The translations under genes were made by a program, and so were the position numbers. The notes beneath the pieces are model-generated. The model worked only from the letters and a program-made list of their open reading frames with translations, searched no databases and was not told the origin of the DNA. Shown in pieces: positions 5,978-63,959 of a stretch of 64,000 bases of DNA (the stretch's first letter is position 1; the number at the start of each line of letters is the position of its first letter). This DNA is from a virus. Location of the stretch: the IMG/VR virus record IMGVR_UViG_3300020122_000089, positions 32,001-96,000 of that record; one strand, written 5' to 3'.

Positions 5978-6172
5978 GGCGGGAATCTTCCGGAAGATTT
6001 CATTCCTTGATTTTTGCTAGTAAGCCCTATGTGCGAATCCTAGTAAAATGAAGGATTGCGATTTTCGAGATTTCAATCGCCTATCTGTGCTTTACGTATT
6101 CATTACCATGTGGTATTTCATGGTATTAAGAATCGTATTTACTCCGGCGGCCGCGTGTTTCTACAGGTCCCT

Positions 6173-6201
6173 ATTGTAGCATGGTTTCCTGTTAAAGTCA
6201 A
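6173..6201 (-). promoter_or_regulatory. Sigma70-type promoter upstream of the DUF559 gene
   Basis: TTGACT-17 nt-TACAAT with TG extension on the minus strand. Confidence 0.55.
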
Positions 6202-6240
6202 GGTATTTTTTCTTACCGTTCTTCCGGAAGAAAATCCTCA

Positions 6241-7623
6241 CTACCGCCAATCTATATCATACGTACCGTCAGCTTTGCGGGCTTTTATCACTCCGGTTTT
6301 ACCGTCTTTAGATTTGACAGCACGCCCTATGTTTTGGTCGTGTAAATTTGCAGAACCTGACGCCTTCTGTCTTTGCGCTAACTTAGCCGCTCGCATCGTT
6401 GCTTTTTCTTGTTCTATTGCGGCTTCGTTTGCCTGCTGCTGTTCGGGAGGGGCAAATACCGATACTTTATGCTTTGCTCTCGCATCTTTGTCGATTTGCT
6501 TTTCTTCTGAATCAGTGAGGCGTTGCTCTGAAACGGCACGGTTGGCTGAGGCAATGCCTTCGCGACTCTTAATGCCAGCCTCAGAACGTGCGTTGCGACC
6601 TGCTTCTTTTGTCGCCTCTGAGGAGGTTACGCCCGTCTGTTTTACCTCACCAGTCTGGAGGTTTAGAACACCAACACCAAAGTTCTTATCCACGACCTGC
6701 TTAATCGCGCCTGGGAGGAATTTAGGATCAATGTTTTCGGCGTTAGGGATTCCAGCCTTCTCAGCCATCGCTATGAGCCCATCTGGATCACCGTTTAACG
6801 CGCCACTATTATACGCCTTGATGAAGTTTTCAAAAGGAACATTAGCGTACTTCTCACGAATACCTTGAAGTCGGGCCGAGGTAATGTCTTTATAGGTTTG
6901 CGCACGGTCTTGAGCGACACCTAAACGCCCAAATGCTAGAGCATTCATGTAATCGCGATTCAAAGCGGTAGGGCCTCGAAGGCCAGTCATTGGGTCGATC
7001 CCCGTAAGGCCTTCTAGCTCTTGAGCACGTTTTAGCTGTGCTTGTCTTTGCTGTTCTTCTATCTGAGATGCTTGGGCTAAAGCGGGAAGATGTGACCGGT
7101 AGAAAGCTCGGTTAACGGTGGAAGGATCTACGCCACCATAAATAGCACCACCGAGCCCACCCATGAGAAGGCCCTTTCCAATTCCAGCAAGATGAGCTTT
7201 TAACCCATGTACGTCAGGGGGTGTATAAGCGCTCGCCTGCGCAAAGCGTTGTTCGGCGGGGCCGGGTTGATATAAAGACCTAAGATTAGCGGCCTGCTTC
7301 ATGTATTCTTGCGGGATTGGTTCACCCTGCCCGCCTACAGTACCACCTTGCGCCATTGCGGCAAGAGCGTTCATTAACCCCATGCGGTTTGCCATTTGAG
7401 GATCGGGGCCTGTAATACCTGGGATTTGTTGCGCACCACCACCGCCGTTCATGTCATACCCTGATTGTTGCTGAGGCGCCGCCACTGAGGCGCCCATGCC
7501 GGGAGGTGGGCCTCCGTACTGAGAAGGATCTGAAAATAATGTCACCGGTGGTAGTTGCGCGCCGGCGAGACGGGCAGCACCGCCCCAAGGGTCGGCAGGA
7601 TCAGCGGTAGGATCGTATGGCAT
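6241..7623 (-). CDS. Putative internal virion/ejection protein
   Basis: 460 aa, G/Q/A-rich low-complexity helical protein with a GLLMGGLGG segment, between tail genes and the giant protein. Confidence 0.5.
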   Translation of the reverse strand: MPYDPTADPADPWGGAARLAGAQLPPVTLFSDPSQYGGPPPGMGASVAAPQQQSGYDMNGGGGAQQIPGITGPDPQMANRMGLMNALAAMAQGGTVGGQGEPIPQEYMKQAANLRSLYQPGPAEQRFAQASAYTPPDVHGLKAHLAGIGKGLLMGGLGGAIYGGVDPSTVNRAFYRSHLPALAQASQIEEQQRQAQLKRAQELEGLTGIDPMTGLRGPTALNRDYMNALAFGRLGVAQDRAQTYKDITSARLQGIREKYANVPFENFIKAYNSGALNGDPDGLIAMAEKAGIPNAENIDPKFLPGAIKQVVDKNFGVGVLNLQTGEVKQTGVTSSEATKEAGRNARSEAGIKSREGIASANRAVSEQRLTDSEEKQIDKDARAKHKVSVFAPPEQQQANEAAIEQEKATMRAAKLAQRQKASGSANLHDQNIGRAVKSKDGKTGVIKARKADGTYDIDWR

Positions 7624-7652
7624 TGCTTTATCCTATGAATCTTCCGGAAGAA

Positions 7653-8159
7653 TTAAGACGCCTTTGATAGATACGCTTCGAGATTGAAGATTTGTTTACA
7701 ATTTGAGCAGGCGATTAAATGCGCCTGCTTGTGAAATATCTTTGCTGACGTTACACCGCCATCTGTATCGTGATCTACGAAACCGCTGAGTACAAGCACC
7801 ATCCTAGCGGGCGATTGAAATGTCTCTTTACAAAACATACATTCATATTCATGTTCACGCATTGCATAAGCGCCCTCTTTTGCCGCGATTGCGTCTTTTA
7901 ACGACGCCGCATGTCCATCAGGGTCATTAGTATGATGCGCTGCTGCGTTTATAAGTTCAAGCTGATAATGCGCTGAGGCGATTGCTTTAGCCCTGCTATC
8001 GGTGAATACATAAGGATGATTTAATGATTGCTGTTGACGTTCTTCTGCTAATGCGGATTCAAATTCACGAAGAAGCTCAACGCCATCCTCTTCTTCTTTA
8101 TCATTTAGAATAGAGAGGATTTTGAATCTAAGATCGTTTGCGCGTTGCGTTATATCCAT
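7653..8159 (-). CDS. Hypothetical protein with C-terminal Zn ribbon
   Basis: 168 aa; CMFC and CSNC pairs; ATG directly follows the upstream TAA. Confidence 0.6.
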   Translation of the reverse strand: MDITQRANDLRFKILSILNDKEEEDGVELLREFESALAEERQQQSLNHPYVFTDSRAKAIASAHYQLELINAAAHHTNDPDGHAASLKDAIAAKEGAYAMREHEYECMFCKETFQSPARMVLVLSGFVDHDTDGGVTSAKIFHKQAHLIACSNCKQIFNLEAYLSKAS

Positions 8160-13391: not shown

Positions 13392-13488
13392 TTTCTTCCG
13401 GAAGAATTATTTTCTTGACATCTGATCGGAATTAACATATAGTTAATAACGTAGACGATAGGAATCGTCAAAAGGGAGGGAAAGATCG

Positions 13489-18568: not shown

Positions 18569-19169
18569 CCTTTGCAACATTCGCTGGGACAAAGTAATCC
18601 GTGTGGCAATCTTTGCATTGATGAACGAATCCGCCTGTTTCGCCAAGGATTTGTTTGTGTGCGGCATCTTCTTGCATGCCGTATTTTTTCATTGTTGAAT
18701 CTAGGCGTTCTTTGTACTTCGGGTTGTCGATTGGAGGGTGCCACGGCCCGGCGTCAGCACCACACGAAGGGCATTTTCCAGGCCCGTCGGCGGCATGCAC
18801 CATATCGCCTTCGTATACTTCGCGGCCGTCTACGATTAAGAATCCGTCACCGCAAGGGATTTTCTCGATGTTTTCATCCTTTGACATATCTTCGGTGGGC
18901 TCTTCGCTTGCCGCCATAGCTTTTGGTTCTTCCGGAAGATTGACAAAAACGGTTAGGATATCTTTGCCGTCAAATTGAAGTGTGTATGATTCTTGCGGAT
19001 CGACAAGAATAGAGCCAGCAGCGCCAACCTCACCAACCCCAGTAATCTCTATCTTATTGACAGGGGCGGATAAATACCAAGTGAGGCGCACTTTATCGCC
19101 CTCTACCTTAGCGGTAAAGCAGCTGATGATACTAGGCGGTGGTGGTTGCTCTATGTTGTCATCTGGCAT
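18534..19169 (-). CDS. Hypothetical protein with Zn ribbon
   Basis: 211 aa; CPSCG and CKDC. Confidence 0.6.
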   Translation of the reverse strand: MPDDNIEQPPPPSIISCFTAKVEGDKVRLTWYLSAPVNKIEITGVGEVGAAGSILVDPQESYTLQFDGKDILTVFVNLPEEPKAMAASEEPTEDMSKDENIEKIPCGDGFLIVDGREVYEGDMVHAADGPGKCPSCGADAGPWHPPIDNPKYKERLDSTMKKYGMQEDAAHKQILGETGGFVHQCKDCHTDYFVPANVAKVKDSQITTGNT

Positions 19170-19980: not shown

Positions 19981-20373
19981 ATGGAATCTTCCGGAAGAAA
20001 GAATTTCATTGTTCAACATCCAAATGGCGACCTCACCCTCTGCGGGCCTGGTAGATCGAAAACCTTCAACATACCATCTAAAATCACTCAACAGTGAATA
20101 CAGTTCCCATGCCTCAGAAGAAGCATGCGGCACATCCTAGAACATGCTGAACCGTGCGAAGATGTACGGTATCAAGTAAAGATGGCGCTTTTGGTTGATG
20201 CCGCTCTTTTAGGGTGCGGCCAGCAAAACGATCCAGGTTGGCCGTACCTGCCTACTGAACCCATAGCATGCCTGCCAGTTTCAGATTTGTGGTTGAATGA
20301 AATCCTGGCATTGCCGCATATTGCTGAACGGATACAGAAATCTCATGACCCACTTACAGTGCCAGCCGATTAA
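19981..20373 (+). pseudogene. Hypothetical gene with internal in-frame TGA (20095-20097)
   Basis: Promoter TTGACC-17-TATACT (19945-19973), ATG 19981 in frame with ORF 20125-20373. Confidence 0.45.
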
Positions 20374-21908
20374 CCGCCAAGAATAGACTTCAACACCTGA
20401 TCCTTTGCACCTTTTGGATCAAGTCTAGCGGCTATCTTTTCTATGTCGGCTTCGTCTTCGGGGGATAGTTTTACGGGTGGAGCCATTGGCCCTACCGATT
20501 CGTCATCGTCTTCTTGATTTGATTCCGTCGCCAATGGCATCGCTTTGTCCATTTCAATTGCCGCTTGAACGCCAGGCGATGGCTCGACAAAGGCCGTTGG
20601 CGCGTAGGGCGCTGCTGACTCACCTACTGGGCGGAATTCATACCCGCAATGGCGACACTTGCGAGGCGGCCCTCCGTTGATTGTGTTGATCTCCTCTGCG
20701 CAATCTGGACATTGCATTTTTTGGATAGTCGAGGCGGTAGCCGCAGGCTGTCCATTTCCCGCATTCTTCGCCACAACTGTTTCGATGTACATCTTGATTT
20801 CTTCCGGAGAAAGACCGCCACGGGTGGTGGATTCAAGAGTACGGCTTAGTGCAGTACGTTCGGGTTTGCGACCTAATAGCCACGCGAGCTTGAAGTAGTA
20901 ACGGTCGTAATTGTCCGTATTGTTAGGATTGCGCATCCTATCTTCAATTGCGGCTATTCTTGTTTCGGCGATGATTCTGAATTGGTCATTGGCGGGTATC
21001 ATGTAATCCATTATTGCGCGGTGCCACGCATCGCGCAGGAACGGCCTTGCGTCAATCACCCTGCGATGTGATTCAAGCATGCGGCCAGTTTCAAGACGTT
21101 CTACTGCATCTTGAAGCCAGCGGAGGCGGATGGCGAGCATACCTACCGCCTCTATCTCATTTCGCATGTCGGCGGGTTTGTCGAGTTCTTTTACTCGCGA
21201 AGGTCGAATCATTTCATTCAACGTGCTGTATTCAACGTCTATCTTATCGAATGGTTCGATATGCGCTAGGATATGTGACGTGATAGCGCGGTCTGATCTG
21301 AGGGCTTGAAGCGTAGTCCCGGCGGGGATTGCAATTACGTGCAACCTTCCTATCTCTTTTTGTTCGATTGGATGGCTTATCACCACCTCTTTGTGCGGAA
21401 CGGCTTGGTCGAGCCTACCGGCTAATACGGATTCTTCAATAGCGCCAATCCTGAACACTTCGCCGGCGGGGATTCTTGAATACGCAGGCGAGTGAAGCAT
21501 TGGCTGTAACCCTTCTGCGTCAATGCCTGGAATGTAAACATAATACGGGCCGGGTTCGGCGGTATTGATATCCCGCACCGTGATGCGTGGTTGCATTTCG
21601 TTTGGCACCATCGCATCTTGCCCAAGATTGTCAAAAACACTCTTTTCAACTGTCGCGCTACTCATGGTTGGTCTCCTTAAACTCTTTTTCTTTCTTCCGG
21701 AAGAATTCTTTAGGGCCGCTCCGGTGATTTCGGCCATTTTATGACGGATGACTTCGTAGGTGTCTTTTGAGGTGTTTAATTCTGTTTCACCTGAAACGCT
21801 TGACGCCCATTCAAGAAGGATTAAAAGGTTTTCATCGTTGAAACTTTCATGCGGAGAGGTTTGACGTGCGTTAAACCAAACGTCGCGGAGGTATCTTTCC
21901 CATGCCAA
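20370..21908 (-). CDS. Hypothetical protein with Zn ribbon; probable main start at ATG 21665
   Basis: AAGGAGA RBS before ATG 21665 (MSSATV); CPDCAEEI..CRHCGYEF. Confidence 0.65.
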   Translation of the reverse strand: MAWERYLRDVWFNARQTSPHESFNDENLLILLEWASSVSGETELNTSKDTYEVIRHKMAEITGAALKNSSGRKKKSLRRPTMSSATVEKSVFDNLGQDAMVPNEMQPRITVRDINTAEPGPYYVYIPGIDAEGLQPMLHSPAYSRIPAGEVFRIGAIEESVLAGRLDQAVPHKEVVISHPIEQKEIGRLHVIAIPAGTTLQALRSDRAITSHILAHIEPFDKIDVEYSTLNEMIRPSRVKELDKPADMRNEIEAVGMLAIRLRWLQDAVERLETGRMLESHRRVIDARPFLRDAWHRAIMDYMIPANDQFRIIAETRIAAIEDRMRNPNNTDNYDRYYFKLAWLLGRKPERTALSRTLESTTRGGLSPEEIKMYIETVVAKNAGNGQPAATASTIQKMQCPDCAEEINTINGGPPRKCRHCGYEFRPVGESAAPYAPTAFVEPSPGVQAAIEMDKAMPLATESNQEDDDESVGPMAPPVKLSPEDEADIEKIAARLDPKGAKDQVLKSILGG

Positions 21909-21909
21909 G

Positions 21910-22857
21910 CTAATACACCTTTTGCCCTCCGCCTGCGGATGAGAATATCCAGGTAGATTTGCCTTTCCTGCTGGTGAATCTTTGCTTGTGCGTATTGAAG
22001 GCCGATCTGATGCGTAGCCGCATAGCTTCGCGCTCTTTTGCTTTTAATTCTTTATCGGTATCGGCTATGCGCATTAGATTCTTTCGCATCGCTTCTGGCG
22101 TAGGGGATTCTCGCCAATCATGTGTGTGAGTTTCTGCGTAGTTACGTCGCCAGAGTGCTTGTACGTATTCGAGGTCGAGGTCGGATGGTTCACGATACAG
22201 CCCAAAACATTTTCTTCTTTCTAGTTTTGCGCGTTCGCAACATAGATGTGAAACGTGCCTCCAAATGCCGTGAAAGCCAAGAAAGTAAAACCCCTCGCGT
22301 GGCATTGGACCCATGTCCGCCTCTTGCCCGGGGTGTCCAAACGTACCCATTACACGACGCCTCGCTTCATCCCATGGGCCTATGATTTCAGGCGGCGTGT
22401 ATTGACTTACCCACCAACGAGGAACGCCAATCTCTTGGTTGTATACCATTTGCGGATAAGGAAGCCCGTATTCTTCACCGTCAGGAAGCATCGCCTTTAA
22501 CTTACCGAATTCTTTTTTCAATGGGTAGGTTAAGGTTTTTACTGTTCTTCCGGAAGAATCACAGACGTCTACATGCCAGCCGATTTGCTCCTGAAGGATT
22601 ACCCTGTGTAGGTATTTCAACGCCCTTGTGAAGGGTGTCCATGTACAAATTGAACCCCATTCCAATCTAAGCATTGGCAGTCCATTTGGGGTTAATCCTG
22701 CAATGTTTATCAATTGGCGTTGAAACCAATCACACCCTTGAGGTGGATTAAAGTTTCTTGGCGGTGGCCATATATCGTAAGGATTCTCGGACATTTGAGA
22801 TGTACCGAGAACTAATGGCCTGTCTACGTCGATGAGGTATTTTTGTTCTGCGCTCAT
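21910..22857 (-). CDS. Hypothetical protein
   Basis: 315 aa ORF, ATGA overlap with upstream gene. Confidence 0.65.
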   Translation of the reverse strand: MSAEQKYLIDVDRPLVLGTSQMSENPYDIWPPPRNFNPPQGCDWFQRQLINIAGLTPNGLPMLRLEWGSICTWTPFTRALKYLHRVILQEQIGWHVDVCDSSGRTVKTLTYPLKKEFGKLKAMLPDGEEYGLPYPQMVYNQEIGVPRWWVSQYTPPEIIGPWDEARRRVMGTFGHPGQEADMGPMPREGFYFLGFHGIWRHVSHLCCERAKLERRKCFGLYREPSDLDLEYVQALWRRNYAETHTHDWRESPTPEAMRKNLMRIADTDKELKAKEREAMRLRIRSAFNTHKQRFTSRKGKSTWIFSSAGGGQKVY

Positions 22858-25210: not shown

Positions 25211-25268
25211 GCAGAACATATTAACACACTATTTAGCATTTGTCAAGAGAAATCTTCCGGAAGAAAGT

Positions 25269-45507: not shown

Positions 45508-45670
45508 TCCGTAACGCTACCTCACAACTGCTAGTCCGCGCATCGGGCACCTGCACGGCCGCTCATAGCGATTGTCATTCTTGCACGAGCCGCCGCTGTC
45601 GGTGTGGTCTTCATGATTGCCGACCCTACAAGCTGAGCATAGTTGATTCGGGTCGACCTGGCGCTTTGGT

Positions 45671-45949: not shown

Positions 45950-47414
45950 ACCGTTCCAACAAACGCGAGCATGGTGAAAGCGCCCAGAACAACCGCCAGC
46001 ACGATGAGGGCGATCGCAGCTTTTCGCCCTCGTTCATCGCTCATTTTGAACCCATCACGAGATATTTCTTGATGCCAGGATGTACTACCGATGCCGCTGA
46101 GCGCGTCTCTATGGCGGTCACGTCCTCTGCTGTATCGACGCAGATTTTTATGACTATAACACCGCCAAACAGAACCCGTAACCGATCTTTCCAATCAAGT
46201 ACAACATCGACCTCTGTTGAGACGCCGTAAGATAACTGCTTGTTCTTCCATGGCCAATCAGGATAGCCAGAAAAGATCGTGAAGCGGATCAGGCGATTAA
46301 GCCAGCTTCGTTGCTTTAGAGGCGCGGTCATGTTTATTGATTCCATATCATTCTCCCCCTCTCCGTTCATTCTTCACCCGCCACGTTAACACGAACAGGA
46401 TGGCAAGTACTAGAATTAAGAAGGCGACTAATGCAGCCAATTCTATCCTCGCTCCAGCTGAGCACGGAATGCGTCAAGCGCTTGAAGAAACGATCTATGA
46501 AAGCGAATCTCTGGAGATTCGTAAGAGGGTAACATGTCGTCCATCCGATACGCGCCTATCGTTTCATAGATCGTACCTAGTCGCGAATAAATATCCCGAC
46601 CAATGCTGTCTAATCCATCCGGTATCGGTGCTGCCATTTTCAATTACCTCCGCTTCAATACTTTTAGATCGTACAAGTCAATCTCATCACAGAAGCTACA
46701 TGTCCCATCAAGATGGATGACTGCCCTTTTCTCGCTGTTGATATAGTCTATCACACCGCGCCTGCCGTCCGGTAACAGCACCCGCTGTCCTTCGTGCCAG
46801 CCACGATGACAGGCGGAGAAGAGGCAGATAAGGATGAGTAATGTGAGTTTCATACGGTTATGAAACTTTCCCTTGCCATGTCTAATGCTTCCTCCCAGGA
46901 AAAGCCCATAAAGCCCTGATAGGGGCCCGGTATCTTAGGGCATGCACCGACATAATAGCGTACACGCTTGCCGTGATCGTCGGACTCGGTGAAAGAATCC
47001 TCGCCGAAGAGCTTGATTGTTTCGACTTCCGCTTCTTCCGGTGTCATCATCATTCTATCCTCGTTTCGGAATCTCCAACTCTTCCAGCCTCACTAGGTAG
47101 AACTCGCCGCCCTGTTCGCAGTGGTAGATCAGTGCCCCGTTATGGGTACGTTGTAATCGAAGCGTCAGATGTCGATGGTTGCCCTGATCGTCTTCGTTCT
47201 CGCTCTCATCTTCAAGCGGCTCGCTCATTTGGTAGCCTCTCTAAGCTCTCTAAGCACGCTTCGGCAAGCAGTATGCACTCAGCCTGCTCATAGCTCTTCG
47301 CCTGCTGCCAGACTCGCGTGTCTTGTTCACCCGACCACGCGTCGGCATTTCTGGCAAGCTGCATGTGATGCCAGATTTGTTGGGCGAGGGAGGCGACGAT
47401 ATCGTTGCGGGGCA

Positions 47415-48458
47415 TCACTTCACCAGCCCTCGATTGTGAAAAATCCCAAACAGCCCGTAGCCAATTGGCCCGAGCTTGAACCATCGAATGATCTTTCGCT
47501 TCTCAGGGTATTTGTACTGCAAGTAATCTGTAGTTCCAATCAGCGCAAAGCTGATCGTAGTCCTCGCGTTTGTCGATGGAATAGGGATTGTTTCGTAGCA
47601 TGTTGGGCAATGTTTCAACGCATATGTCGTTGAGAGTCTATCCCCTATCGCGGCTGCGGCCCAGGCTGCGTCGAAGGTGAAGTCGAGTGGCGTGTACCAG
47701 CGTTCTTTTCCTGTTGCGCCAGTTGATAACCACAGCCTTGGCATTGAAAAGCGAGGCGGACGTATAGCGATCGACTGTTCACCCTCCCGAGAGCTTACTG
47801 AGAAGTCGTGTCCATTGGAGCAGGTGAACGTGCAAGTTGTCCAATTCGGATCGCTGTGATGATATACGCCCTTTTCATCGTAGTAGTCGTAAGTCGCCAT
47901 CAATGTACAGGTGCATCCGAGTCCGCTTGGATAAACCTTGCTCTCTTTTCCCTGCTTGACACAAACCGGACAGCGATGATCCCAACCTATTTGAGTGGCA
48001 GCTACTGTTAGCTTGCTTCCTGACGTAGTAGCACCCAAACAGCAGTCGTTAAATTCTTTTGTGCCCGACAGCCCGCCACGGCCGCAAATCATCGGCGATG
48101 TCAGAGTCTTGCTTGGTGTAGACTCTTGCCCGTAGGCGAGAAGGGGAAGGGCGAGAAGTAGCAACAGGGTAGGTAGAGCCTTTGACCTTAGAATACGGTC
48201 AATCTCTGCGGCGATTAGCGCTCCCGCTATAACAAGAGACCGCACAGCGTCATCACCGTGTTTGGCAATCAATCCCCGGGCATCACCCTCCGCGTCGCCA
48301 TCATATTCGGCGCGGCAATTTGGTGTACCCCGCCCGAGTGGATCACAAACGGTGGCATCGGTCCCGTGGACAGCAAGCGCAGCCTCAATATCGGCCCAAT
48401 CTAGCGGCTTGGAAAGCTCAGTTCCCATTGGCGACAGTTCGATTGAATGTCCGCTCAT
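47415..48458 (-). CDS. Chimeric hypothetical membrane protein
   Basis: N-terminal LVIAGALIAAEIDR domain, internal signal-like segment, Cys-rich middle, hydrophobic C-terminus. Confidence 0.6.
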   Translation of the reverse strand: MSGHSIELSPMGTELSKPLDWADIEAALAVHGTDATVCDPLGRGTPNCRAEYDGDAEGDARGLIAKHGDDAVRSLVIAGALIAAEIDRILRSKALPTLLLLLALPLLAYGQESTPSKTLTSPMICGRGGLSGTKEFNDCCLGATTSGSKLTVAATQIGWDHRCPVCVKQGKESKVYPSGLGCTCTLMATYDYYDEKGVYHHSDPNWTTCTFTCSNGHDFSVSSREGEQSIAIRPPRFSMPRLWLSTGATGKERWYTPLDFTFDAAWAAAAIGDRLSTTYALKHCPTCYETIPIPSTNARTTISFALIGTTDYLQYKYPEKRKIIRWFKLGPIGYGLFGIFHNRGLVK

Positions 48459-49663
48459 TTGCCAACCTCCCCGCGCGAGAGGCAGTAGGCGGTAAGAATC
48501 TGCGCGATTGCCGGATCAAACATCGCAATAAGCATTTCTCGACTTTTTCCCGGCAAGAGTCCGTTGACGTTGAGCACTTCCGCACATTTCTCAGCCGATA
48601 GATTCGCGGGGTCTACGGCTGTCGGCGATTGAGCAAGGACTCTCCTGACGTGGTCCTTCGCGGCATCTACGGCGATCATTCGATGAGTATAGGGCGGTAT
48701 CTCGAATCCACCTTCATCAAGGGCGTTGGTTATGTCGCTCACAACGCCAGCGGCGGCTATCGACGGTTGGGCGCGGCGTTCACCCGCAGCATACGCCTCA
48801 AGCATGTGTCGATAATCATGATCGCTGTCGATTCTGTGAATCTCGGCATATTCGGCGAACCACCTGTTGAATTGGATTACCACCCGGGCGGTTTCTGGCA
48901 ACTCAGGCTTTGCATCTTCGGCGGCTTGCCCGCCCTGAATATCGAAATGCTTACGTACTTCGTTCGCGACCTCGGCCACAAGATTAGCAGTTCGGGTATA
49001 GCAACAGGCAATAGCCGGATCGTTAATCGCCCTCACCTGCCAAGGCCCAACGGGATCGGTTGGCGGCGCTGAACCTATCAGGGCTCCGACATGCTGTGAA
49101 CACGAATAGGTAACGCCCATATCGGGTCGGCGCTCGCCTTCGTCGAATATCTCAAAATCGGCTTGAGCAGTGCAGGCTTGCTCGCTGGCTGCTTGAGTAG
49201 GGGCCAACGGCTCAACGATAGGATTTTCCCACTCCCAAGTTCGGCCCGAGCCGTCAGGACATAGTGCCGCTTTGTTATCGTGACGACCGTGAACTTGACC
49301 ACAGTGAGTGCACGTTACCTCTCGCTCGATTTGCGGATCTGAGATTGGCGCTGAGATAGACTTTGGCTCACGGCTCTGTTTATGCCAAGGATCGGAACAG
49401 TTAAACGACCTCGGAGGATATCCGTGACAGGTAGGGCACCACTTAGTAGGTTGCTCTACGGCTTGTTGCGTTGTAGCCAGAGCTACACGAAGAACTTCTT
49501 CAACATAAGAACAGGTTGGGGCTTCCCCGTTTCCGCCAATCGAACTGCGCAGTTCATGTCGTACGTCTTCGATGCTGTGACCGGCTTTAAGCATCTCCAG
49601 TGCGGCGCTGAGAAAATGCATCTGTGGTTCTTGCTTCTGAATTTCCGATGCGGTAGGATTCAT
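48455..49663 (-). CDS. Mosaic hypothetical protein with Cys motifs
   Basis: 402 aa; CPTC, CTHC; GAAGG RBS. Confidence 0.6.
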   Translation of the reverse strand: MNPTASEIQKQEPQMHFLSAALEMLKAGHSIEDVRHELRSSIGGNGEAPTCSYVEEVLRVALATTQQAVEQPTKWCPTCHGYPPRSFNCSDPWHKQSREPKSISAPISDPQIEREVTCTHCGQVHGRHDNKAALCPDGSGRTWEWENPIVEPLAPTQAASEQACTAQADFEIFDEGERRPDMGVTYSCSQHVGALIGSAPPTDPVGPWQVRAINDPAIACCYTRTANLVAEVANEVRKHFDIQGGQAAEDAKPELPETARVVIQFNRWFAEYAEIHRIDSDHDYRHMLEAYAAGERRAQPSIAAAGVVSDITNALDEGGFEIPPYTHRMIAVDAAKDHVRRVLAQSPTAVDPANLSAEKCAEVLNVNGLLPGKSREMLIAMFDPAIAQILTAYCLSRGEVGK

Positions 49664-49788
49664 TTGCTCACCATCCTTCTTTCATGAGACTTTGGTGGGT
49701 TTCAGCAGGGGCGGCTAGTTTCGACCGGTCGCCTTGTGCTGTCTCTGGGCTCATTGTAACACCTCGCTCCCGCATTGCAAGCTGAATC

Positions 49789-50001
49789 CTACGGCAATAT
49801 CTCATTGCAGTTCGAAATCGTGATACACCCGCTTGAATCAGCGTACAGGCTGATGTAGACGGTTTGGCCTGCCGAGTTTGTGTAGGACGTTACAACATGT
49901 TCATTTGGCTGATAGCTGCAGTCCGAACAGGTTGAGCTATCACACGCACCGATGAACAGAATTGAGAGAGCGAGTACGAGAATTAAGATTGATCGTTTCA
50001 T
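49789..50001 (-). CDS. Small Cys-rich lipoprotein
   Basis: MKRSILILVLALSILFIGA-C lipobox; TAATG overlap with upstream gene. Confidence 0.55.
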   Translation of the reverse strand: MKRSILILVLALSILFIGACDSSTCSDCSYQPNEHVVTSYTNSAGQTVYISLYADSSGCITISNCNEILP

Positions 50002-50333
50002 TAGTGCCTCCAATTCTTGAACGCTACTCCAATATGAACCCCGCCAACAACGTAACGTAGGATGTTCATTGCTCGCGGATGATTCTTCTGAAAGAACAGC
50101 GTCGTGCCGTAGCCCGCTGCGTTTAATCCGAAGTACAAACCACCATTGACCTGTCCGTTACTGCGGATGAATGGGTTGCCCTCCGTTCGCTTATAGCTTG
50201 AAGCGTAGTCAGCGGACACGCTGCCCCAAAACACAACGCTTGACGATTTGAAATTCCAGTCCCAAGTTGACTTGACGGGCTGTTGAGCAAAACAGGAACA
50301 GCAAAGTACGAGAATTACTAGCATCGTCTTCAT
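50001..50333 (-). CDS. Secreted/membrane protein with D..S..EGNP motif
   Basis: Signal peptide plus hydrophobic helices. Confidence 0.55.
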   Translation of the reverse strand: MKTMLVILVLCCSCFAQQPVKSTWDWNFKSSSVVFWGSVSADYASSYKRTEGNPFIRSNGQVNGGLYFGLNAAGYGTTLFFQKNHPRAMNILRYVVGGVHIGVAFKNWRH

Positions 50334-50341
50334 AAAAATCC

Positions 50342-52831
50342 TTACTTCGCGGGAACAATCGACATTGGCTTAGGCTGTGTCAGTGTCTGAATATCGCGGT
50401 GAAACTGCTCCGTTTCGGCCTGTTGCATCTTTATGGTCTTTAGTTCTCTTAGTTCTTGGACCTCACGGCGGAGCTGTTCAATCTCCATTTGCTGATCTTG
50501 AATCGCACGGATCAACAGCGCTGGCATTTTGATATAATCAACGCTGTGCAGTTCGCCTCTTCGGTCTCGGATCGCAAGCCGCTCGTCAACCCGTGCCACT
50601 TCTTCTGCGATCAATCCAACCTGTCTTGACCCGCCTGTTTTGTAGTTGAACGCGACGGGCCGCAGTCTCATCACTTCATCAAGACCGTTTGTTAAAGGCT
50701 CGATGTGATCTTTGAATTTTAAGGCCGAGACGATACATGCTGCGTTGTCGTTGACTAGCTCGCCATTCGAGGCGACGCACATATAGGTAGTTCCTGAGCC
50801 AGAAGTAGAAAGGCCATCCATCCATACTCTCTTACGGATCGCTGCCCCACCTGCAACTTGTAGGGCTCCGGTTGTTGTGGACGTGGAGTCAGTTGTACTA
50901 GTTACAATAATGTTATTAAGTTTTAGATCGCCAGCAAAGCTACCTTGGGAACCTGTGCCGATTCCAACCAGGCCCGCAGAGATTCGCCCGATTCCAGTAT
51001 CTTGACCTCCAGCAGCCTCCCAACTATTAGTATTCGCCCACACAAGTGACATATTTTGTGCAAGTCCAAACCGATTTCCTCCTGTATATATTTCAAAGAC
51101 TGACCCCGTTCCCTCTACATAAAAGTCAAATACAGTTCCCGTCCGACGATACCAGCCCTGAGTCTCTCCGGCGAACTTGAATCCTTCTACTGCCCCATTA
51201 GCTATAACAAGCTGTCCGGCGATAGAAAGGTTTCCACTTGAATCTAGTGTGGTAGTAGCAGATGGGGTTTGTAGAGTTGTTGTGCCGCCGCCTGTCACAA
51301 GAGCAGTCGAAGTTAAACTACCCGCGCCAACAACCGTAACTGTTCCGCTTCCACCTCCCGCTGCTGCCCACTTCACCCCATTTGTACTTGCTGCATCTGC
51401 GGTCAACACTTGACCATCACTACCCACCGCAAGTTTATTCAGGCTTGCTCCACCCGGAGCGGTCAGCAAGTCACCTTTCGTATAGGCGGTCTGACCTGTC
51501 CCGCCGACCGCCACTGTAACTGTATTCAACGCCGCTGCAAGAATCTTTCCCGCTGCATCGGTGTGGGTAGTAGGGCCAGAGCCGACTTTCAATACTCCCG
51601 CAACAAGTAGATTAGTTGCTCCGGCATCAGATGTAGAGCCTATACTCACGCCACCGCTATCGTTTATCCTCGCCGCTTCCGTCCCTCCATTGTTCCCGAC
51701 CGTGAATTTGATGAGGTCGGTTGTGCCAACACCGGAGGTCGAGCGAATCTCAGCCGAAGCCCCAACTGCTGTGCCGCCTATGACCGATGGGGTGGTGACA
51801 GAACTTGGGGTAATCGCTCCAAGGGTGACGGTCAGGGATGGGGTTGCGCCTCCGCTTGAAATGCCACTGACTCCATTTGCTGTAGTGATTCCGATAGTCT
51901 TAACAAACGTGCTTGAAAGTGAGCCGTCAGCAATTCCACTTACAGTCAACACCCCCGCACTTGACAGCGAGAACGTCGCACCTGATCCGCTCAAGCCCAC
52001 TGGCGCGTAGGCTGTTCCTCCGGCATTACCAGCAAGGATTTGGCCGGCCGATGGCGCGGTGTTGGGAACGATGCTGGCTTTCGTTTGAGCGTCGTTAGTG
52101 ACTGCGCTCAACCCGACATCGGTCTTCGAGGGTGTCGAGTAAACGAACACGCCCGCTCCATCGTTGTGCAACCAACCAGCGCCGTTCGCCAGTGCTGCGA
52201 TAGTCGTGAGGTTTGTGTTAAGTGGCTGTGCATCTGTGATTCCATACCCACTCAGTGTCGTTGGCTTGCTCGCGATATTTGCGAAGATGTAACCGGTGCC
52301 CGCTGCAAGGTTGCCCGATGCAATCGTGCCGAGGATTGGCGCTGTGAACGTCTGTTGTCCACCCCATGAATGCGCCGTCGAAAACACATCCGCGTTGAGC
52401 ATTGCAGAGGTAACTTTAGTCGCGCCTATGGCGGTGGTTTTTCCGCCTGACGTACTAACATCGCCGGTTAAATCGCCTACGGCGGTTGCTTGACTGCCGG
52501 CGCCGAAAACAAGCTGGTTTAACGTAAGGGACGCCGCGGAGGTGACGCAGGTAGCGCAGGCAATGGTTCCTGTAGTTGTAATTACACCGCCGGTTATTGG
52601 AGAGGTGGTTGAAATGCTGGTTACAGTTCCCGACCCACCGCCACCTGCCACGGTGACCACACCACCTGTAATGGTGAGTGATCCGTCTGCGAATACAAGA
52701 TTGGTGGCGTTTGTTCTTCCAACCCCTGTAGTTGCTTCGCGTATTGTCAGCGGTGGATGGCTTTGCGCCTTTACCGTCCTACTACAAGCTATTGTAAGCA
52801 TGAAGGCGAGAATGAAAAGGATTTTTTTCAT
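50342..52831 (-). CDS. Tail-fibre-like protein with C-terminal peptidase S74 chaperone and N-terminal signal peptide
   Basis: G/T/A-rich repeats (GTVTSI, KPTTLSGYGITDA, GGTGQT, GSDGQVLTAD); SALKFKDHI..LRPVAFNY..GLIAEEV..VDY..LIRAIQ. Confidence 0.85.
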   Translation of the reverse strand: MKKILFILAFMLTIACSRTVKAQSHPPLTIREATTGVGRTNATNLVFADGSLTITGGVVTVAGGGGSGTVTSISTTSPITGGVITTTGTIACATCVTSAASLTLNQLVFGAGSQATAVGDLTGDVSTSGGKTTAIGATKVTSAMLNADVFSTAHSWGGQQTFTAPILGTIASGNLAAGTGYIFANIASKPTTLSGYGITDAQPLNTNLTTIAALANGAGWLHNDGAGVFVYSTPSKTDVGLSAVTNDAQTKASIVPNTAPSAGQILAGNAGGTAYAPVGLSGSGATFSLSSAGVLTVSGIADGSLSSTFVKTIGITTANGVSGISSGGATPSLTVTLGAITPSSVTTPSVIGGTAVGASAEIRSTSGVGTTDLIKFTVGNNGGTEAARINDSGGVSIGSTSDAGATNLLVAGVLKVGSGPTTHTDAAGKILAAALNTVTVAVGGTGQTAYTKGDLLTAPGGASLNKLAVGSDGQVLTADAASTNGVKWAAAGGGSGTVTVVGAGSLTSTALVTGGGTTTLQTPSATTTLDSSGNLSIAGQLVIANGAVEGFKFAGETQGWYRRTGTVFDFYVEGTGSVFEIYTGGNRFGLAQNMSLVWANTNSWEAAGGQDTGIGRISAGLVGIGTGSQGSFAGDLKLNNIIVTSTTDSTSTTTGALQVAGGAAIRKRVWMDGLSTSGSGTTYMCVASNGELVNDNAACIVSALKFKDHIEPLTNGLDEVMRLRPVAFNYKTGGSRQVGLIAEEVARVDERLAIRDRRGELHSVDYIKMPALLIRAIQDQQMEIEQLRREVQELRELKTIKMQQAETEQFHRDIQTLTQPKPMSIVPAK

Positions 52832-52858
52832 TTCTTTTTCTTCCGGAAGAAACTCAGG

Positions 52859-54221: not shown

Positions 54222-54242
54222 ATTCTTCCGGAAGAATTAAAA

Positions 54243-58777: not shown

Positions 58778-58815
58778 TTCGATTCTTCCGGAAGAATAAC
58801 CTTCCTGTTGGCCGT

Positions 58816-59157: not shown

Positions 59158-59363
59158 GATTGATTCCTCCTGCCACCTTTTCGGCGGCGGTTATTGAAGC
59201 TGCCGCCTGAACGGCATCTATGATTGCTTTACCTGCGAGTTCGCCGGCTAGAAGTTTACTAATTATTAAAGCACCGGCTTCGTCGTAGGTGTTTACTGTC
59301 ACCTGCTGCGGGTTTTGTTCGATTAAGATTTGATGGGTAAGCATGAATTATCTTCCGGAAGAA

Positions 59364-60725: not shown

Positions 60726-61292
60726 TATTCCTCTCCTTGATCGGTATAAAACGGGATGCGAATACCGCGTGAATAGATTATCTCGCCGCTGCTTAATCGG
60801 TCATATATCTTTTGCTCGCGGCTAAACCTCTCTGAAGGTGTCTCCATATAGCGCATTGCGAATTTTGCTATATCCTCTAATGAATCACTTTCCGGTGCTG
60901 ATAAAGAGCGCTGGTGTAATATATCGCGCTCTAATTCGGCTAAGTGCTCGCCGCACGGCTCGTATTCATTACATTCGCAGGGCATAAATTTCTTCCGGAA
61001 GATTCAAAATAGAGCATGTACAACTTTAAGGGGTGTCAAGGGGGATGGATTTGCATAGCCATCTTCGTATTTGAATACGTGGATGCGTTCACGGTTTTTA
61101 GAGTATGTCATTAAGTGCAATAACTGGCTATACTCTCGTCGTTTTGTAATCTCAGTCGCGGCGCGTGAGGCGGTGATAGCGGTGCAGTCTAACGCTTTGT
61201 AGCCTTCGTCCTTCCATCGTTGAATATGCTCTGGCAATTCTATAGCGGTTATGTTTTCTACTGTAAACATGCGCATTGTTTCTTCCGGAAGA

Positions 61293-62187: not shown

Positions 62188-62368
62188 TTTAGACCTTGCT
62201 TCTTTTCGTAATGCTTAATGGTTCGAGGGGCATAATCGGGGAGGTTTTTAGGTGACTGCCCCTCGTGTATTCGGCGGCCTTTGAACGGGATAATCCTTTC
62301 GGGGCGGGGATGCTTCCCGACTGGATCGCTTTCATGTAGCCAAATTGGGCTTTACTCACGCTTGGCAT
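62184..62368 (-). pseudogene. Small MPSVSKAQ-type phage protein with apparent 1-nt deletion
   Basis: GGAGG RBS; MPSVSKAQFGYMKA..KAAEYT then GQSPKNLP in the -1 frame, ending with an ATGA overlap. Confidence 0.5.
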
Positions 62369-62370
62369 AA

Positions 62371-63153
62371 CTATTCCTCCGAAAGAAATGAACGCCCGGC
62401 ACCCGCATACCGCTTGAGACTATTCATATCTATGTCATATGCGCGGTCGCTAGAACGTAATCTTTTCCAATCCGGCGGCTCCTGTTTCGACCATTGTCGA
62501 ATTGTCGATGTGCGGAACCTTACATTCGTAACATGCGACGAAGCCCTAATCCCGTCCCTGCATAACACTTTCAACTTTTCTAGTTGGTATTGCATGCCGG
62601 GCTGTAACCCTTCAAATTCATAATCAACACGCCCGCCGTTCATTGTAGGGATGGGTGTTTCTATTTCCGATCGGATGATCTGATTATCAATACCGCGCAA
62701 CACCGTCCTTAACCTCTCCGTGCCGGCAGGAATCCAGGCGGACAGCGTGGCGGCTACATTACGATGTGTGTCAAATCTTTCGGCGATCTTAAAAGGCGTC
62801 AGCGGCTTCGGAAGTGGCAGACTGTTTATGCTTGAAGCGTCAAGCGCCACCATAGCCCTAAACGACTGCGCTGCTTTTTGAAGTTCGCGGGCTAGTTCAG
62901 TAGACGCAAGCCAAGCACCTTCTTCGGCGTAATAGATCGCTTTCATGTCTAGGTCAAGAGGTACTTCCCATTCCATACCAGACGGTAAAGTACCTTTGAC
63001 CACTAAGCGTGGCGCGCCTAACCCATCAACAATGTCAGGTCCGTATTGCGTGTTCAGCCTAGCATCATGAACTTCGTTAGGCATCATCGCCTGTAATGAA
63101 GCCGAAGCTACAGATTCAAGATTTGCGGCCATATCTATAGCACTCATTGCCAA
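62371..63153 (-). CDS. Hypothetical protein, possible Fn3-like segment
   Basis: 260 aa; FEGLQPGMQY. Confidence 0.55.
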   Translation of the reverse strand: MAMSAIDMAANLESVASASLQAMMPNEVHDARLNTQYGPDIVDGLGAPRLVVKGTLPSGMEWEVPLDLDMKAIYYAEEGAWLASTELARELQKAAQSFRAMVALDASSINSLPLPKPLTPFKIAERFDTHRNVAATLSAWIPAGTERLRTVLRGIDNQIIRSEIETPIPTMNGGRVDYEFEGLQPGMQYQLEKLKVLCRDGIRASSHVTNVRFRTSTIRQWSKQEPPDWKRLRSSDRAYDIDMNSLKRYAGAGRSFLSEE

Positions 63154-63278
63154 TACCTGTCGCCTTGAATTTTTGAGGTGTCAATTCGGAGCATGAAGGA
63201 TAGAAGCCAAAATACAAAAACAACACCAATTGTCAGGACGATTAAGATTCCGATAGATAACAGGATTGCAGCGAGCAT

Positions 63279-63635
63279 CTAATACATCCTCATAGGGGAA
63301 TAAGGCGAAACGCCACGGAAGTTGGCGTATGGTTCTGGCGAGTTTGCGCCCGCCGTTGGAAAGCCTATCGGCCTTTCAGGTGAAGGCGCTGCAAGTGGTG
63401 GTAGTGCTTTGCCGCCTAAGTCTGGCGCTTGCTGGCTGAAAGATTGATTCGGTTGCTGTCCGTAAGGCTGTATTGACATCGTATCAGGTGTTGCACTGGC
63501 TAGTGGCTTTGCACCGCCAAGAGGATTCGCGTACATACCCTGCCCGTTACCTGCGCCGCCGCCAAAAGACATTCCGCCTTGCGAGAAGTCTGGCTGGCCG
63601 TATGCTTGCTGATTGTATTGGAAAGGGGATCCCAT
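63279..63635 (-). CDS. Low-complexity G/P/Q-rich hypothetical protein
   Basis: 118 aa ORF. Confidence 0.5.
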   Translation of the reverse strand: MGSPFQYNQQAYGQPDFSQGGMSFGGGAGNGQGMYANPLGGAKPLASATPDTMSIQPYGQQPNQSFSQQAPDLGGKALPPLAAPSPERPIGFPTAGANSPEPYANFRGVSPYSPMRMY

Positions 63636-63959
63636 TTCTTTACTAATCCGCCACTATCGCTGTTGCTTTCGATAGCTGATTGAGAATTGCTGTGGTGAGT
63701 TTCATCCTTCCAGATGCTTCTAAAAATACGCACGCGGTCTCATGTGAAACCCTAGCGCCACACTTACATCGAAAAAAACATTGAACCGCATCATCTACCC
63801 AATCGTGAAGGTGTTGCATTTCCTATTTCCTCCGGAAGATTTTTCATTGTCTCCTTACGTACCACGTATTCTAGTACGATTAACGTAAGTGGGTATTTTA
63901 GAGGCGCGCAACACTCTCGGAAATTTTATCCGAGAAGATTTCACGGCTCGATTATGATG

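Follow-up and report, generated by a model that had tools for sequence, protein, structure and literature searches.

A palindrome with fixed arms and a lineage-dependent centre punctuates cistron boundaries in a 104-kb soil phage and its relatives

The window analysed here is a 64,000-nt stretch (positions 32,001 to 96,000) of the virus record IMGVR_UViG_3300020122_000089, and the phage genome (G000) comprises 104,058 bp; coordinates follow window numbering unless marked as genome. The window contains 26 exact copies of the palindrome TCTTCCGGAAGA, in agreement with the number and positions given in the initial annotation, and the whole genome contains 51, while 100 dinucleotide-preserving shuffles gave none. 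Near-matches, which that annotation had put at about 10, amount to seven copies with one mismatch and seven with two, so that matches at ≤2 mismatches in the window total 40 versus 2.4 expected. All seven one-mismatch copies retain CCGG; one, TCCTCCGGAAGA at 63828..63839, lies ~120 nt downstream of a strong minus-strand promoter at genome 95988, and the others are at 9686, 11665, 16242, 23841, 57014, and 62162. Genome-wide, the scan yielded 51 exact, 11 one-mismatch, and 10 two-mismatch copies.

The copies concentrate at gene boundaries. Using ORFs of at least 60 aa, 32 of the 51 copy centres fall within 25 nt of an ORF boundary, compared with 9.5% of random positions (P ~1e-20). The usual arrangement is a stop codon, 0–10 nt, the motif, 1–8 nt, and an ATG; alternatively, the motif is followed by AAGGAG and then the ATG. 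Altogether, 21–23 of the 51 copies end 1–10 nt ahead of an ATG opening a long ORF, and four lie in codons 2–8. The 11 minus-strand ATGs previously listed beside a copy are all ORF starts. The copy at 7640..7651 sits 1 nt past a stop codon (7653) and 16 nt ahead of ATG 7623, with AGGA in between, and that at 52839..52850 sits 8 nt past a stop and 7 nt ahead of ATG 52831, which opens an 829-aa tail-fibre-like gene. The copies at 59351..59362 and 60991..61002 each follow a stop by 1 nt and precede ATGs 59344 and 60985 by 6 and 5 nt, whereas the copy at 61281..61292 comes directly after a stop, 4 nt ahead of ATG 61276. At 54224..54235, the motif is 7 nt past the portal stop and 2 nt ahead of ATG 54221, and at this junction the relatives G001 and L114 also carry their own lineage's motif. 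Further copies precede ATG 58777 by 6 nt (58784..58795), ATG 29853 by 7 nt (29861..29872; 405 aa), ATG 13391 by 2 nt (13394..13405; 570 aa), and ATG 30672 by 4 nt (30677..30688, overlapping the final codons of the upstream ORF). The leader copy at 5986..5997 is 8 nt upstream of ATG 5977 (187-aa gene) and ~170–180 nt downstream of the promoter at 6201, and the copy at 38373..38384 is 13 nt ahead of ATG 38359 (66-aa ORF), with the promoter at 38844 lying ~425 nt upstream of it. An intergenic copy at 31606..31617 lies 26 nt past a stop and 3 nt ahead of GGAGG, and that at 40399..40410 lies 10 nt past a stop and 7 nt ahead of AAGGAGG (ATG 40370). The region of the intron-split capsid gene includes three homologous non-coding elements of ~350 nt, and each has a copy at the corresponding place in the alignment (33811..33822, 34197..34208, and 35819..35830); 37694..37705 is likewise in the capsid-gene/intron region.

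Some copies had been placed in coding sequence, and these are present. Where copies overlap genes they stay within ~5 codons of the gene ends, as at 23486..23497, which covers codons 3–6 of a 216-aa gene (ATG 23504; MQFFRKN); a truly internal copy is found at 22546..22557, 300 nt from the start of a 315-aa gene. Several apparently internal copies probably mark true starts, judging by ortholog lengths. The copy at 18928..18939 lies within a called 211-aa ORF, 10 nt 5′ of an in-ORF ATG that is probably the true start and would fit the 108 aa of the G001 ortholog. For a 512-aa ORF, the true start is probably the one in AAGGAG-N7-ATG, a sequence lying 14 nt downstream of the copy at 21693..21704.

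Some other sites accompany strong sigma70-type promoters, either 6–18 nt 5′ of the −35 box or in the leader directly past the promoter. The four cases named in the initial annotation hold, at 18, 9, 6, and 6 nt: 6220..6231 (9 nt past the stop of a 460-aa gene) precedes TTGACT-17-TACAAT (−35 at 6201, minus strand), 13394..13405 precedes the plus-strand promoter TTGACA-17-TATAGT at 13415, 25253..25264 (4 nt past the stop of a 336-aa gene) precedes TTGACA-17-TAATAT (−35 at 25246, minus strand), and 38851..38862 (8 nt past the stop of a 499-aa gene) precedes TTGACA-17-TATTAT (38844, minus strand). Across three genomes, 10 copies lie 6–28 nt 5′ of a strong-promoter −35 box, at 6, 6, 9, 12, 18, 18, 18, 19, 25, and 28 nt with no helical phasing. 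About seven copies have a stop codon on one side and the −35 box of the following promoter on the other, and one lies between convergent stop codons at genome 5678. Five of 10 strong promoters have an exact or one-mismatch copy within 200 nt downstream, versus ~11% expected from density, and several sit between two copies 180–480 bp apart. In a divergent region, the copy at 19987..19998 is 7 nt into the plus-strand transcript of the leaderless-type promoter TTGACC-17-TATACT (19945). The short plus-strand islands with their own leaderless-type promoters have no copies of their own in the transcribed stretch.

Could the motif itself be a promoter, used by a phage-modified or phage-specific transcription machinery to make leaderless or very-short-leader late transcripts? 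Copies are highly conserved and stand directly 5′ of many genes, and with a 2–6 nt gap the motif centre would be 6–10 nt from the ATG, resembling the −10 boxes of the leaderless-type sigma70 promoters here, which lie 7–8 nt ahead of the ATG. The motif is also missing from one 12.4-kb minus-strand stretch of small genes (40411..52838; GC 52%), many of which have strong AAGGAG Shine–Dalgarno sites, though this gap alone is not significant (P = 0.08). A promoter is, however, not expected to be palindromic, because firing would go both ways, and the GC-rich CCGG centre melts poorly. Copies also occur in first codons, between stops and real promoters, and where genes converge, and neither sigma region 4 (Sigma70_r4, six-frame searches of G000 and G001) nor an RNA polymerase family (ORF census) was found. 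We consider this the least probable explanation of those weighed here.

The position of the motif before start codons raises the question of a role in translation. An RNA hairpin hiding a GGAAG ribosome-binding sequence had been proposed, yet this reading fails because the structure is weak, at −0.5 to −2.3 kcal/mol, and relatives do not keep the GG, having AAAAG in place of GGAAG; moreover, some copies are followed by a normal AAGGAG. More generally, the motif could act in the RNA of the initiation region, as a small hairpin immediately ahead of the start codon. A phage protein might bind it to repress or activate translation, in the manner of T4 RegA or MS2 coat protein, or an endoribonuclease might cleave it and so trim polycistronic RNA to units whose leaders are very short. 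The copies next to ATGs and in early codons are in line with this, as are the motif-to-ATG spacing in G001 (mostly exactly 2 nt), the orientation of asymmetric copies described below, and a host that evidently translates leaderless-type mRNAs. Nevertheless, the ~7 copies upstream of promoters or between convergent stops fall outside initiation regions, a hairpin loop has no need of a palindromic centre, the hairpin is barely stable, and no RNA-binding or RNase family was recognised in the ORF census, making such an element unlikely. As ~60% of motif-less genes also have no strong Shine–Dalgarno site, a replacement of that site by the motif would not be specific.

Scanning the relatives showed that the arms TTCTT-N4-AAGAA are kept and the centre differs. 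The centre is CCGG in G000, TTAA in G001 (a complete 104-kb relative with 25 copies), and the asymmetric CCAG in the G002/L114 lineage. The whole 12–16-mer, centre included, is a perfect palindrome in the first two of the three lineages, and the inner half-site positions vary (TCTTCC, TCTTCT, and TCTTTT). In G002/L114, 13 of 15 asymmetric copies have CCAG on the sense strand (binomial P ~0.01), against a background CTGG:CCAG ratio of only ~1.1–1.3, and symmetric centres are under-represented (4 versus 15 asymmetric). The palindrome is a lineage-specific cis-signal, TTCTT-N4-AAGAA, that punctuates cistron boundaries. Individual sites turn over, with 3 of 10 testable G000 boundary sites shared with G001, and a G000-specific promoter segment lies between two copies (38220/37986, genome numbering) where G001 has a single one.

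Such turnover, together with copies that are uniform within and different between genomes, would also be compatible with a recombination linker or self-propagating micro-repeat, whose effects on expression are secondary: identical boundaries would promote cassette exchange via the phage ERF/YqaJ/RecA/RusA genes, and gene conversion would keep the copies uniform. T4-type PeSL cassettes are reportedly a precedent. In the Cluster O mycobacteriophages, indels fall between palindrome copies (PMC4351075). Yet a stretch of 12–16 bp offers little length for homologous recombination, 51 perfect copies are unlikely to be maintained by second-order selection, and both the orientation bias and the pattern of fixed arms and changing centre are left unexplained, so we regard this origin as improbable.

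Most probably, a phage protein uses the array as its docking signal. The earlier idea of a binding array holds in so far as the sites form a selected, probably protein-read array, its specific readings apart. Dozens of near-identical 13-bp stoperators, read by the temperate-phage immunity repressor (L5 gp71), occupy short intergenic gaps genome-wide in Cluster A mycobacteriophages; these asymmetric sites face the direction of transcription and evolve together with the protein that reads them. Our sites share their number, uniformity, and intergenic position and, in the asymmetric lineage, their orientation, but searches of G000 gave no repressor, HTH_3, or integrase, and a classical immunity stoperator array is not supported. 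In G001, which also gave no integrase or repressor family, the one HTH_3 match is weak (E = 0.0026, under the family cut-off), and the protein concerned resembles a terminase small subunit. The KorB OB (plasmid RK2) and ParB-parS systems also spread identical palindromes across one replicon, both within genes and close to promoters. Here, however, ParB_N and HTH_17 were absent from six-frame searches of G000 and G001, and the proposed parS-type partition site is not supported, given the ParB_N result. Cluster K start-associated sequences are a conserved 13-bp motif a few bases 5′ of some start codons; they are asymmetric and include the ribosome-binding site, whereas our motif is palindromic, also occurs past stops and before promoters, and has an RBS-like GG that is not conserved in relatives.

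The mycobacteriophage iterated-site analogy was apt, and the closest published case is the 17-bp palindrome of Cluster O (Corndog), 5′-TGTTCGGNNNCCGAACA, with >30 invariant inverted-repeat copies over a ~70-kb genome. Most occupy short intergenic gaps or gene 5′ ends and a minority are internal; few lie near SigA promoters, host genomes have none, and the authors suggest a dimeric binder (PMC4351075). The likeness lies in the many invariant inverted repeats at gaps and gene 5′ ends, few of them near promoters. In contrast, the 3-bp Cluster O spacer varies within a genome with no orientation rule, while here the 4-bp centre is fixed per genome, lineage-variable, and oriented in the asymmetric lineage; the sequence and the phages are unrelated, and a NusG-like gene is not reported there (PMC4351075).

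By the same logic as the Cluster O proposal, our motif could be a two-fold symmetric dsDNA operator for a small dimeric phage protein, e.g. a ribbon–helix–helix protein that escapes recognition through its shortness or divergence, or for a host protein. Once occupied, copies would serve as roadblocks or insulators, or as operators beside promoters, much as stoperators and KorB OB sites do, with pairs possibly looping. The perfect palindromy in G000 and G001, the fixed arms with a changing inner half-site, the 10 copies upstream of −35 boxes, the promoters bracketed by copy pairs, and the spacing in G001, which is more regular than random (CV 0.57, P = 0.003), all point this way. The tiny intergenic gaps are the sole non-coding space for a 12-mer, which would explain its closeness to start codons, and since ~70% of ORFs are unannotated, the reader could be hidden. 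On the other hand, none of the DNA-binding families searched for was found in G000 or G001 apart from the sub-threshold HTH_3 match in G001, motif-to-−35 distances show no helical phasing, coding copies hug gene ends instead of spreading over tolerant protein regions, and the oriented asymmetric copies of G002/L114, unpredicted by a symmetric dimer, challenge the assumption of such a reader. We regard operators as possible, ranking just below the reading developed next and nearly as likely.

The initial annotation held that the cognate protein was not identifiable; outside the window, however, there is a candidate. No ParB_N, HTH_3, or HTH_17 domain was found in G000. Genome 102447-102971 encodes an RfaH-like NusG paralog, the sole recognisable transcription factor, found in all three lineages with one NusG-family gene per complete genome and a truncated homolog at the end of the G002 fragment. 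Pfam searches of 114 ORFs and PHROGs searches of 74 small ORFs gave no alternative reader. In NCBIfam, the factor matches RfaH best, along its entire length, although the score is far below the RfaH equivalog cut-offs. An AlphaFold model (pLDDT 91) has NGN and KOW domains, with NusG and RfaH–ops complexes as top structural matches; the modelled KOW is a beta-barrel, not the autoinhibited alpha-hairpin that ties Escherichia coli RfaH to ops. The gene is the first behind a strong promoter at genome 103227 heading the 97-kb leftward gene array. Its 220-nt leader contains a motif copy in G000, whereas the G001 leader has none. Another copy, 10 nt ahead of the stop codon (LLPEE in G000), is retained in G002 and, in two reading frames, in relatives (LPEE in P0017, P0020, and P0021; SSGR in P0019), and four relatives known from protein searches only have factor homologs whose C-terminal residues spell the motif. 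Retention in two frames suggests selection on the DNA, which we count for an RfaH-like reading. Between G000 and G001, the factor (27% identity) has diverged far faster than the portal (58%), and this divergence accompanies the change of motif centre from CCGG to TTAA. A tblastn search with both factors against 50,697 GenBank phage records gave no matches.

RfaH recognises the 12-nt ops as a small non-template-strand hairpin in leaders, its target genes have no Shine–Dalgarno sites, and NusG paralogs serve very long operons, often being encoded beside them (PMC7819879). We tentatively place first the possibility that the motif copies are ops-like loading or pause sites for the NusG paralog, whose role as reader we infer. 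Also in its favour are the orientation of the asymmetric G002/L114 copies, the frequency of copies within 200 nt downstream of strong promoters, and the plus-strand islands without copies. Host RNA polymerase would transcribe the 97-kb leftward array and a shorter rightward one, and at each copy the 12-nt element would form a small hairpin on the sense strand, whether in non-template bubble DNA (RfaH/ops style) or in nascent RNA (LoaP/leader-hairpin style). The factor would load or re-load onto polymerase there, keeping it pause- and Rho-resistant over stop–start junctions where ribosomes drop off, and its KOW domain may aid ribosome loading at Shine–Dalgarno-less start codons 1–8 nt past the motif.

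The resemblance to RfaH/ops (and to LoaP, UpxY, and TaA; PMC7819879) comprises a NusG paralog nearest RfaH, a sequence-specific 12-nt element capable of a sense-strand hairpin, copies in leaders after promoters, common Shine–Dalgarno-less targets, very long co-directional arrays, and a factor gene adjoining its presumed target. It differs in that the motif is unrelated to GGCGGTAGnnTG and fully palindromic, and the factor is phage-encoded. Several points count against the ops-like reading: ops-type sites normally occur about once per operon, compared with 51 here; full palindromy is unneeded for a hairpin loop and agrees better with a dsDNA reader of two-fold symmetry; a 5-bp stem with a 4-nt loop takes up more non-template strand than a normal bubble exposes; as RNA, the hairpin by itself is barely stable; and the ~7 copies between a stop and a −35 have no obvious use as loading sites. 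The copy-less G001 leader, the beta-barrel KOW, the sub-cut-off RfaH score, and the unspecific Shine–Dalgarno argument weigh on the same side.

In summary, dozens of identical palindromes mark gene boundaries in a 104-kb soil phage and its relatives, with centre letters that depend on the lineage. This signal may co-evolve with a phage-encoded reader, for which the NusG paralog is the favoured candidate.

The array of the 12-nt palindrome TCTTCCGGAAGA at gene junctions, reported in the initial annotation, proved to be real. The window, which spans bases 32001–96000 of the virus record, contains 26 exact copies, compared with none in 100 shuffles, as well as seven copies with one mismatch and seven with two, where chance alone would give 2.4 matches within two mismatches. 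Across the whole phage genome (G000; 104,058 bp, GC 49%), we counted 51 exact copies, together with 11 that differ at one position and 10 that differ at two. The CCGG centre is intact in 7/7 one-mismatch copies of the window, and no TCTT-N4-AAGA copy in G000 has a centre one step away from CCGG, indicating that the centre in this genome is constrained at least as much as the arms. Like inverted repeats of the Cluster O type, the motif is present in more than 30 copies with invariant arms, mostly in intergenic sequence or at gene 5' ends. The 51 copies are not spaced more evenly than random positions (CV 1.05). Gene-boundary arrays of iterated short motifs are found in phages as Cluster O palindromes, Cluster K start-associated sequences and Cluster A stoperators. 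To our knowledge, short palindromes repeated in this way are on record for several phage groups, e.g. Cluster O mycobacteriophages, and still lack a functional explanation. The motif itself was not found in a phage context in the literature.

Placement relative to genes was assessed with crude ORF calls made in this analysis. Nearly all G000 genes are on the minus strand, with a leftward array of 97 kb running from ~103.1 kb down to 5.7 kb and a rightward array of 6.5 kb that starts at ~103.3 kb and continues over the ends of the record. When ORFs of 60 aa or longer are considered, 32 of the 51 copies have their centre no more than 25 nt from an ORF boundary, a position shared by 9.5% of random positions (P ~1e-20). 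In the sense of the neighbouring genes, the commonest layout is a stop codon, 0–10 nt, the motif, 1–8 nt and ATG; alternatively, the motif is followed after 0–17 nt by AAGGAG and after another 6–10 nt by ATG. Four copies fall within codons 2–8 of a gene. About seven others have a stop codon on one side and, 6–18 nt away on the other, a strong sigma70-type -35 box; the copy at genome position 5678 is flanked by two convergent stop codons. Half of the strong promoters (5/10) have an exact or one-mismatch copy in the leader, within 200 nt downstream. No motif was found in the transcribed stretch of the short plus-strand islands, whose own promoters lie 7–8 nt before the ATG. A motif-free block of 12.4 kb (window 40411–52838, GC 52%) holds small genes, many of them with strong AAGGAG sites, and this gap is by itself not significant (P = 0.08).

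Several other features of the genome were recorded. Strong sigma70-type promoters on the plus strand (window 10765–10804, 16973–17011 and 19945–19983) have -10 boxes that end 7–8 nt before the ATG, an arrangement that implies leaderless transcripts in the host. The gene for the major capsid protein is fragmented (window 31947–37652, minus strand), its four ORF fragments being 70–84% identical to parts of a single 470-aa ORF in G001, a complete relative genome. Rfam calls four group I introns in this region (window 32333–32576, 32721–33637, 34376–35306 and 36024–36969); three more homologous elements of ~350 nt, not called by Rfam, carry the motif at the same aligned column. A giant minus-strand ORF of 2887 aa (window 2–5389; the whole ORF spans genome 28726–37389) has histidine-phosphatase and weak ART-PolyVal domains, and its G001 counterpart is 5243 aa long. 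One of the 40 ORFs in window 45070–63819 and in L003 (a piece of the same genome) 5998–13714 matches anti-Thoeris Tad5 (PF25190, E = 3.7e-24). Both record ends (genome 1–340 and 103800–104058) consist of a 15-nt tandem array of ACTTGCGCGGCTCGG, which reads as a pentapeptide-repeat ORF (Pfam PF00805), and IMG/VR classes the record under direct terminal repeats. A tRNA scan found none.

Named relatives were not detected by megablast of 8 kb or by tblastn of the portal against 50,697 GenBank phages. Metagenomes contain 14 portal homologs, and an alignment of portal homologs used as the query against metagenome and viral collections led to four loci. No related loci came from the single portal sequence, P0010, P0015 or the alignment of RfaH-like proteins as the query, nor from the portal alignment against genome contigs. 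The resulting comparison of motif centres covers three lineages. The complete relative G001 (104,444 bp, portal 58% identical to that of G000) has no copy of TCTTCCGGAAGA and 25 copies of TCTTTTAAAAGA, with the centre TTAA. These are placed at gene boundaries as in G000, mostly as TCTTTTAAAAGA-AA-ATG or directly abutting AAGGAG, and are more evenly spaced than random (CV 0.57, P = 0.003). The motif of L115, a fragment of a relative, is of the same TTAA type. Two other fragments, G002 and L114, come from one metagenome and each hold half of a portal that is 66% identical to that of G000. On the same arms they carry CCAG/CTGG in 15 copies, CCGG in three and CTAG in one, i.e. 15 asymmetric versus 4 symmetric centres. 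Using true minus-strand genes identified by homology to set the sense strand, we found CCAG on this strand in 13 of the 15 asymmetric copies (P ~0.01), against a background CTGG:CCAG ratio of only ~1.1–1.3 on that strand. The occurrence of the same arms with different centres across relatives shows that the element is TTCTT-N4-AAGAA with a lineage-specific centre, and the asymmetric, transcription-oriented sites of one lineage give a hint of a strand-specific reader.

Conservation of sites at orthologous junctions is only suggestive. G000 and G001 have sites in common at 3 of 10 testable boundaries, versus 4/52 (P = 0.076). At the junction that follows the portal gene, G000, G001 and L114 all have their local form of the motif. 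As just 3/10 testable boundaries are common to the two genomes, motif sites turn over. The copy located 10 nt before the stop codon of the RfaH-like gene described below persists in several relatives, where the protein tail reads either LPEE or SSGR, and also in G002; its retention in two reading frames shows that selection acts on DNA or RNA, not on protein.

We considered whether the motif could act as a known type of RNA signal. Its RNA hairpin has a dG of -0.5 to -2.3 kcal/mol, the sequence 3' of it in the sense direction is an A-run rather than a T-run or U-run, and terminator-like matches in the window are near the shuffle expectation. With no stable GC-rich stem, no U-tract and chance-level terminator counts, an intrinsic (Rho-independent) terminator was rejected, and the weak hairpin and A-run argue equally against a passive occluding structure. 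The proposal that an RNA hairpin hides a GGAAG ribosome-binding site thus fails on folding energy and flanks. Nor does the motif itself serve as a Shine–Dalgarno sequence, since GGAAG becomes AAAAG in G001 and a canonical AAGGAG lies downstream of some copies.

Of the known DNA sites that the initial annotation offered as analogies, neither was supported as the identity of the motif. A parS-type site (or KorB-OB) is disfavoured because six-frame searches of both G000 and G001 gave no match to ParB_N (CTPase; PF02195) at E ≤ 0.1, and a Cluster A stoperator/immunity system by the lack of an HTH immunity repressor or integrase in G000 (Pfam, PHROGs, HTH_3, HTH_17). Cluster A stoperators are asymmetric and transcription-oriented; the motif is palindromic in G000 and G001 but asymmetric and oriented in G002 and L114. 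HTH_17 and Sigma70_r4 gave no match in G000 or G001; HTH_3 gave none in G000 and one sub-threshold match in G001, in a protein resembling a terminase small subunit. Integrase, repressor and RNA polymerase families are missing among 114 ORFs searched with Pfam and 74 small ORFs searched with PHROGs. This 222-aa protein with its weak HTH (Sf6_terminase, HTH_Tnp_1_2) was not taken as the reader. At the start of the rightward array, the first gene gave a weak match to the RAMA domain (E = 3.7e-5, below cut-off) and has no G001 ortholog. No generic repeat or host source emerged: among the matches listed, the 14-mer (searched in viral contigs) and the 16-mer (searched in genome contigs) were single-copy and taxonomically scattered, and no contig with more than one copy of the motif was present among the bacterial and viral matches listed. 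G000 encodes a C5 cytosine DNA methylase (PF00145, E = 1.5e-49; genome 100647–101453, minus strand), a DUF559/Vsr-like nuclease and three N6_N4 methylases. The C5 methylase is absent from G001 and occurs only in the genome with the CCGG motif centre, and the centre might track this enzyme.

A symmetric dsDNA operator array bound by a dimeric protein is the reading given for the Cluster O palindrome, the closest published case (PMC4351075). Such an array would account for both the symmetry of the motif and the promoter-flanking copies, yet it does not explain why sites in the G002 lineage are oriented and mostly asymmetric, and it comes with no candidate protein. We regard it as nearly as likely as the reading proposed below.

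The sole transcription factor in the ORF census of G000 is a NusG-family protein of 174 aa (genome 102447–102971, minus strand). PF02357 scores above cut-off in this protein and in its G001 ortholog, encoded on the minus strand at 98724–99293; a truncated ortholog is found at the end of G002, and further relatives have homologs, one of which shares a 31-kb contig with a portal homolog. Using tblastn, the G000 and G001 proteins gave no match in 50,697 GenBank phage records. The best family match of the factor is RfaH, over its full length. In the RfaH equivalog test (TIGR01955 / NF006534) it scored 37 and 50 bits, far below the cut-off of 144.5; it is a specialised NusG paralog and not RfaH proper. 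Its AlphaFold model (pLDDT 91) has NGN and beta-barrel KOW domains, and the top Foldseek matches of this model are NusG and RfaH, RfaH–ops complexes included. The autoinhibited alpha-helical KOW, which ties recruitment to the DNA element, is not seen in the model, and AlphaFold with a NusG-rich alignment may miss a fold switch. The factor gene is the first behind a strong promoter heading the leftward array, and motif copies lie 18 nt upstream of this promoter, in the 220-nt leader and in the last codons of the gene. Between G000 and G001 the factor is 27% identical and the portal 58%. The following gene (90 aa; genome 102173–102445, L003:12173–12445, minus strand) overlaps the stop codon of the factor gene (TAATG) and encodes zinc-ribbon-like CxxC pairs; it is 56% identical in G002 and has no BLAST match in G001.

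RfaH reads the 12-nt ops, a small non-template-strand hairpin of the paused complex in operon leaders, and it binds ribosomal protein S10 through its KOW domain; operons served by NusG paralogs are very long, and the paralog gene often lies next to its operon (PMC7819879). The 12-nt length of the phage motif, the leader copies at 5/10 strong promoters and the 13:2 orientation of the asymmetric lineage would fit an element of this kind, but there are 51 copies, many of them outside leaders. The ops consensus GGCGGTAGnnTG does not match TCTTCCGGAAGA.

We tentatively propose that the motif may be read by the RfaH-like factor of the phage. In its favour are the 12-nt length, the hairpin potential, the fact that copies occur in leaders and where cistrons begin, the orientation of sites in the asymmetric lineage, the pairing of a fast-diverging factor with a changing centre, the position of the factor at the array head and the lack of another recognisable reader. 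Against it stand the number of copies, the location of some of them upstream of promoters and the modelled beta-barrel KOW. In addition, the centre is perfectly palindromic in two lineages, a feature that a symmetric dsDNA reader would need but a loop would not. Taken to its full extent, reading by the RfaH-like factor would mean that soil phages of one clade, with genomes of ~100 kb, carry a gene for an RfaH-like NusG paralog of their own, and that the recruitment signal of this factor, a hairpin-forming 12-mer with a centre setting lineage specificity, has spread to most cistron boundaries. The motif would then form a genome-wide 'punctuation' code, tying each gene to processive antitermination and perhaps also to the loading of ribosomes at starts that lack an SD. 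We regard this complete scheme as less likely than not. Most of the remaining probability is shared by three other readings: an operator or processing site at the RNA level, a promoter of leaderless transcripts and a linker for recombination.

The new features are that the centre changes with the lineage on arms that stay conserved, that sites in one lineage follow an orientation rule, and that the motif occurs together with an RfaH-like factor encoded by the phage itself. The question becomes testable with a natural specificity series (the same arms with centres CCGG, CCAG and TTAA in related genomes), with an oriented asymmetric lineage that hints at the strand, and with a named candidate reader that is clade-conserved and heads a gene array of 97 kb. 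Should the RfaH-like factor prove not to be the reader, the array would still define a DNA site of some other phage protein, which could be fished with a 14–16-bp probe. If the scheme based on the RfaH-like factor is true, no NusG-paralog/ops-like system encoded by a phage, and no explanation for an iterated phage palindrome, would have preceded it. The link, if it holds, would extend NusG-paralog biology to phages and show how a virus without its own RNA polymerase carries the host RNA polymerase through ~100 genes.
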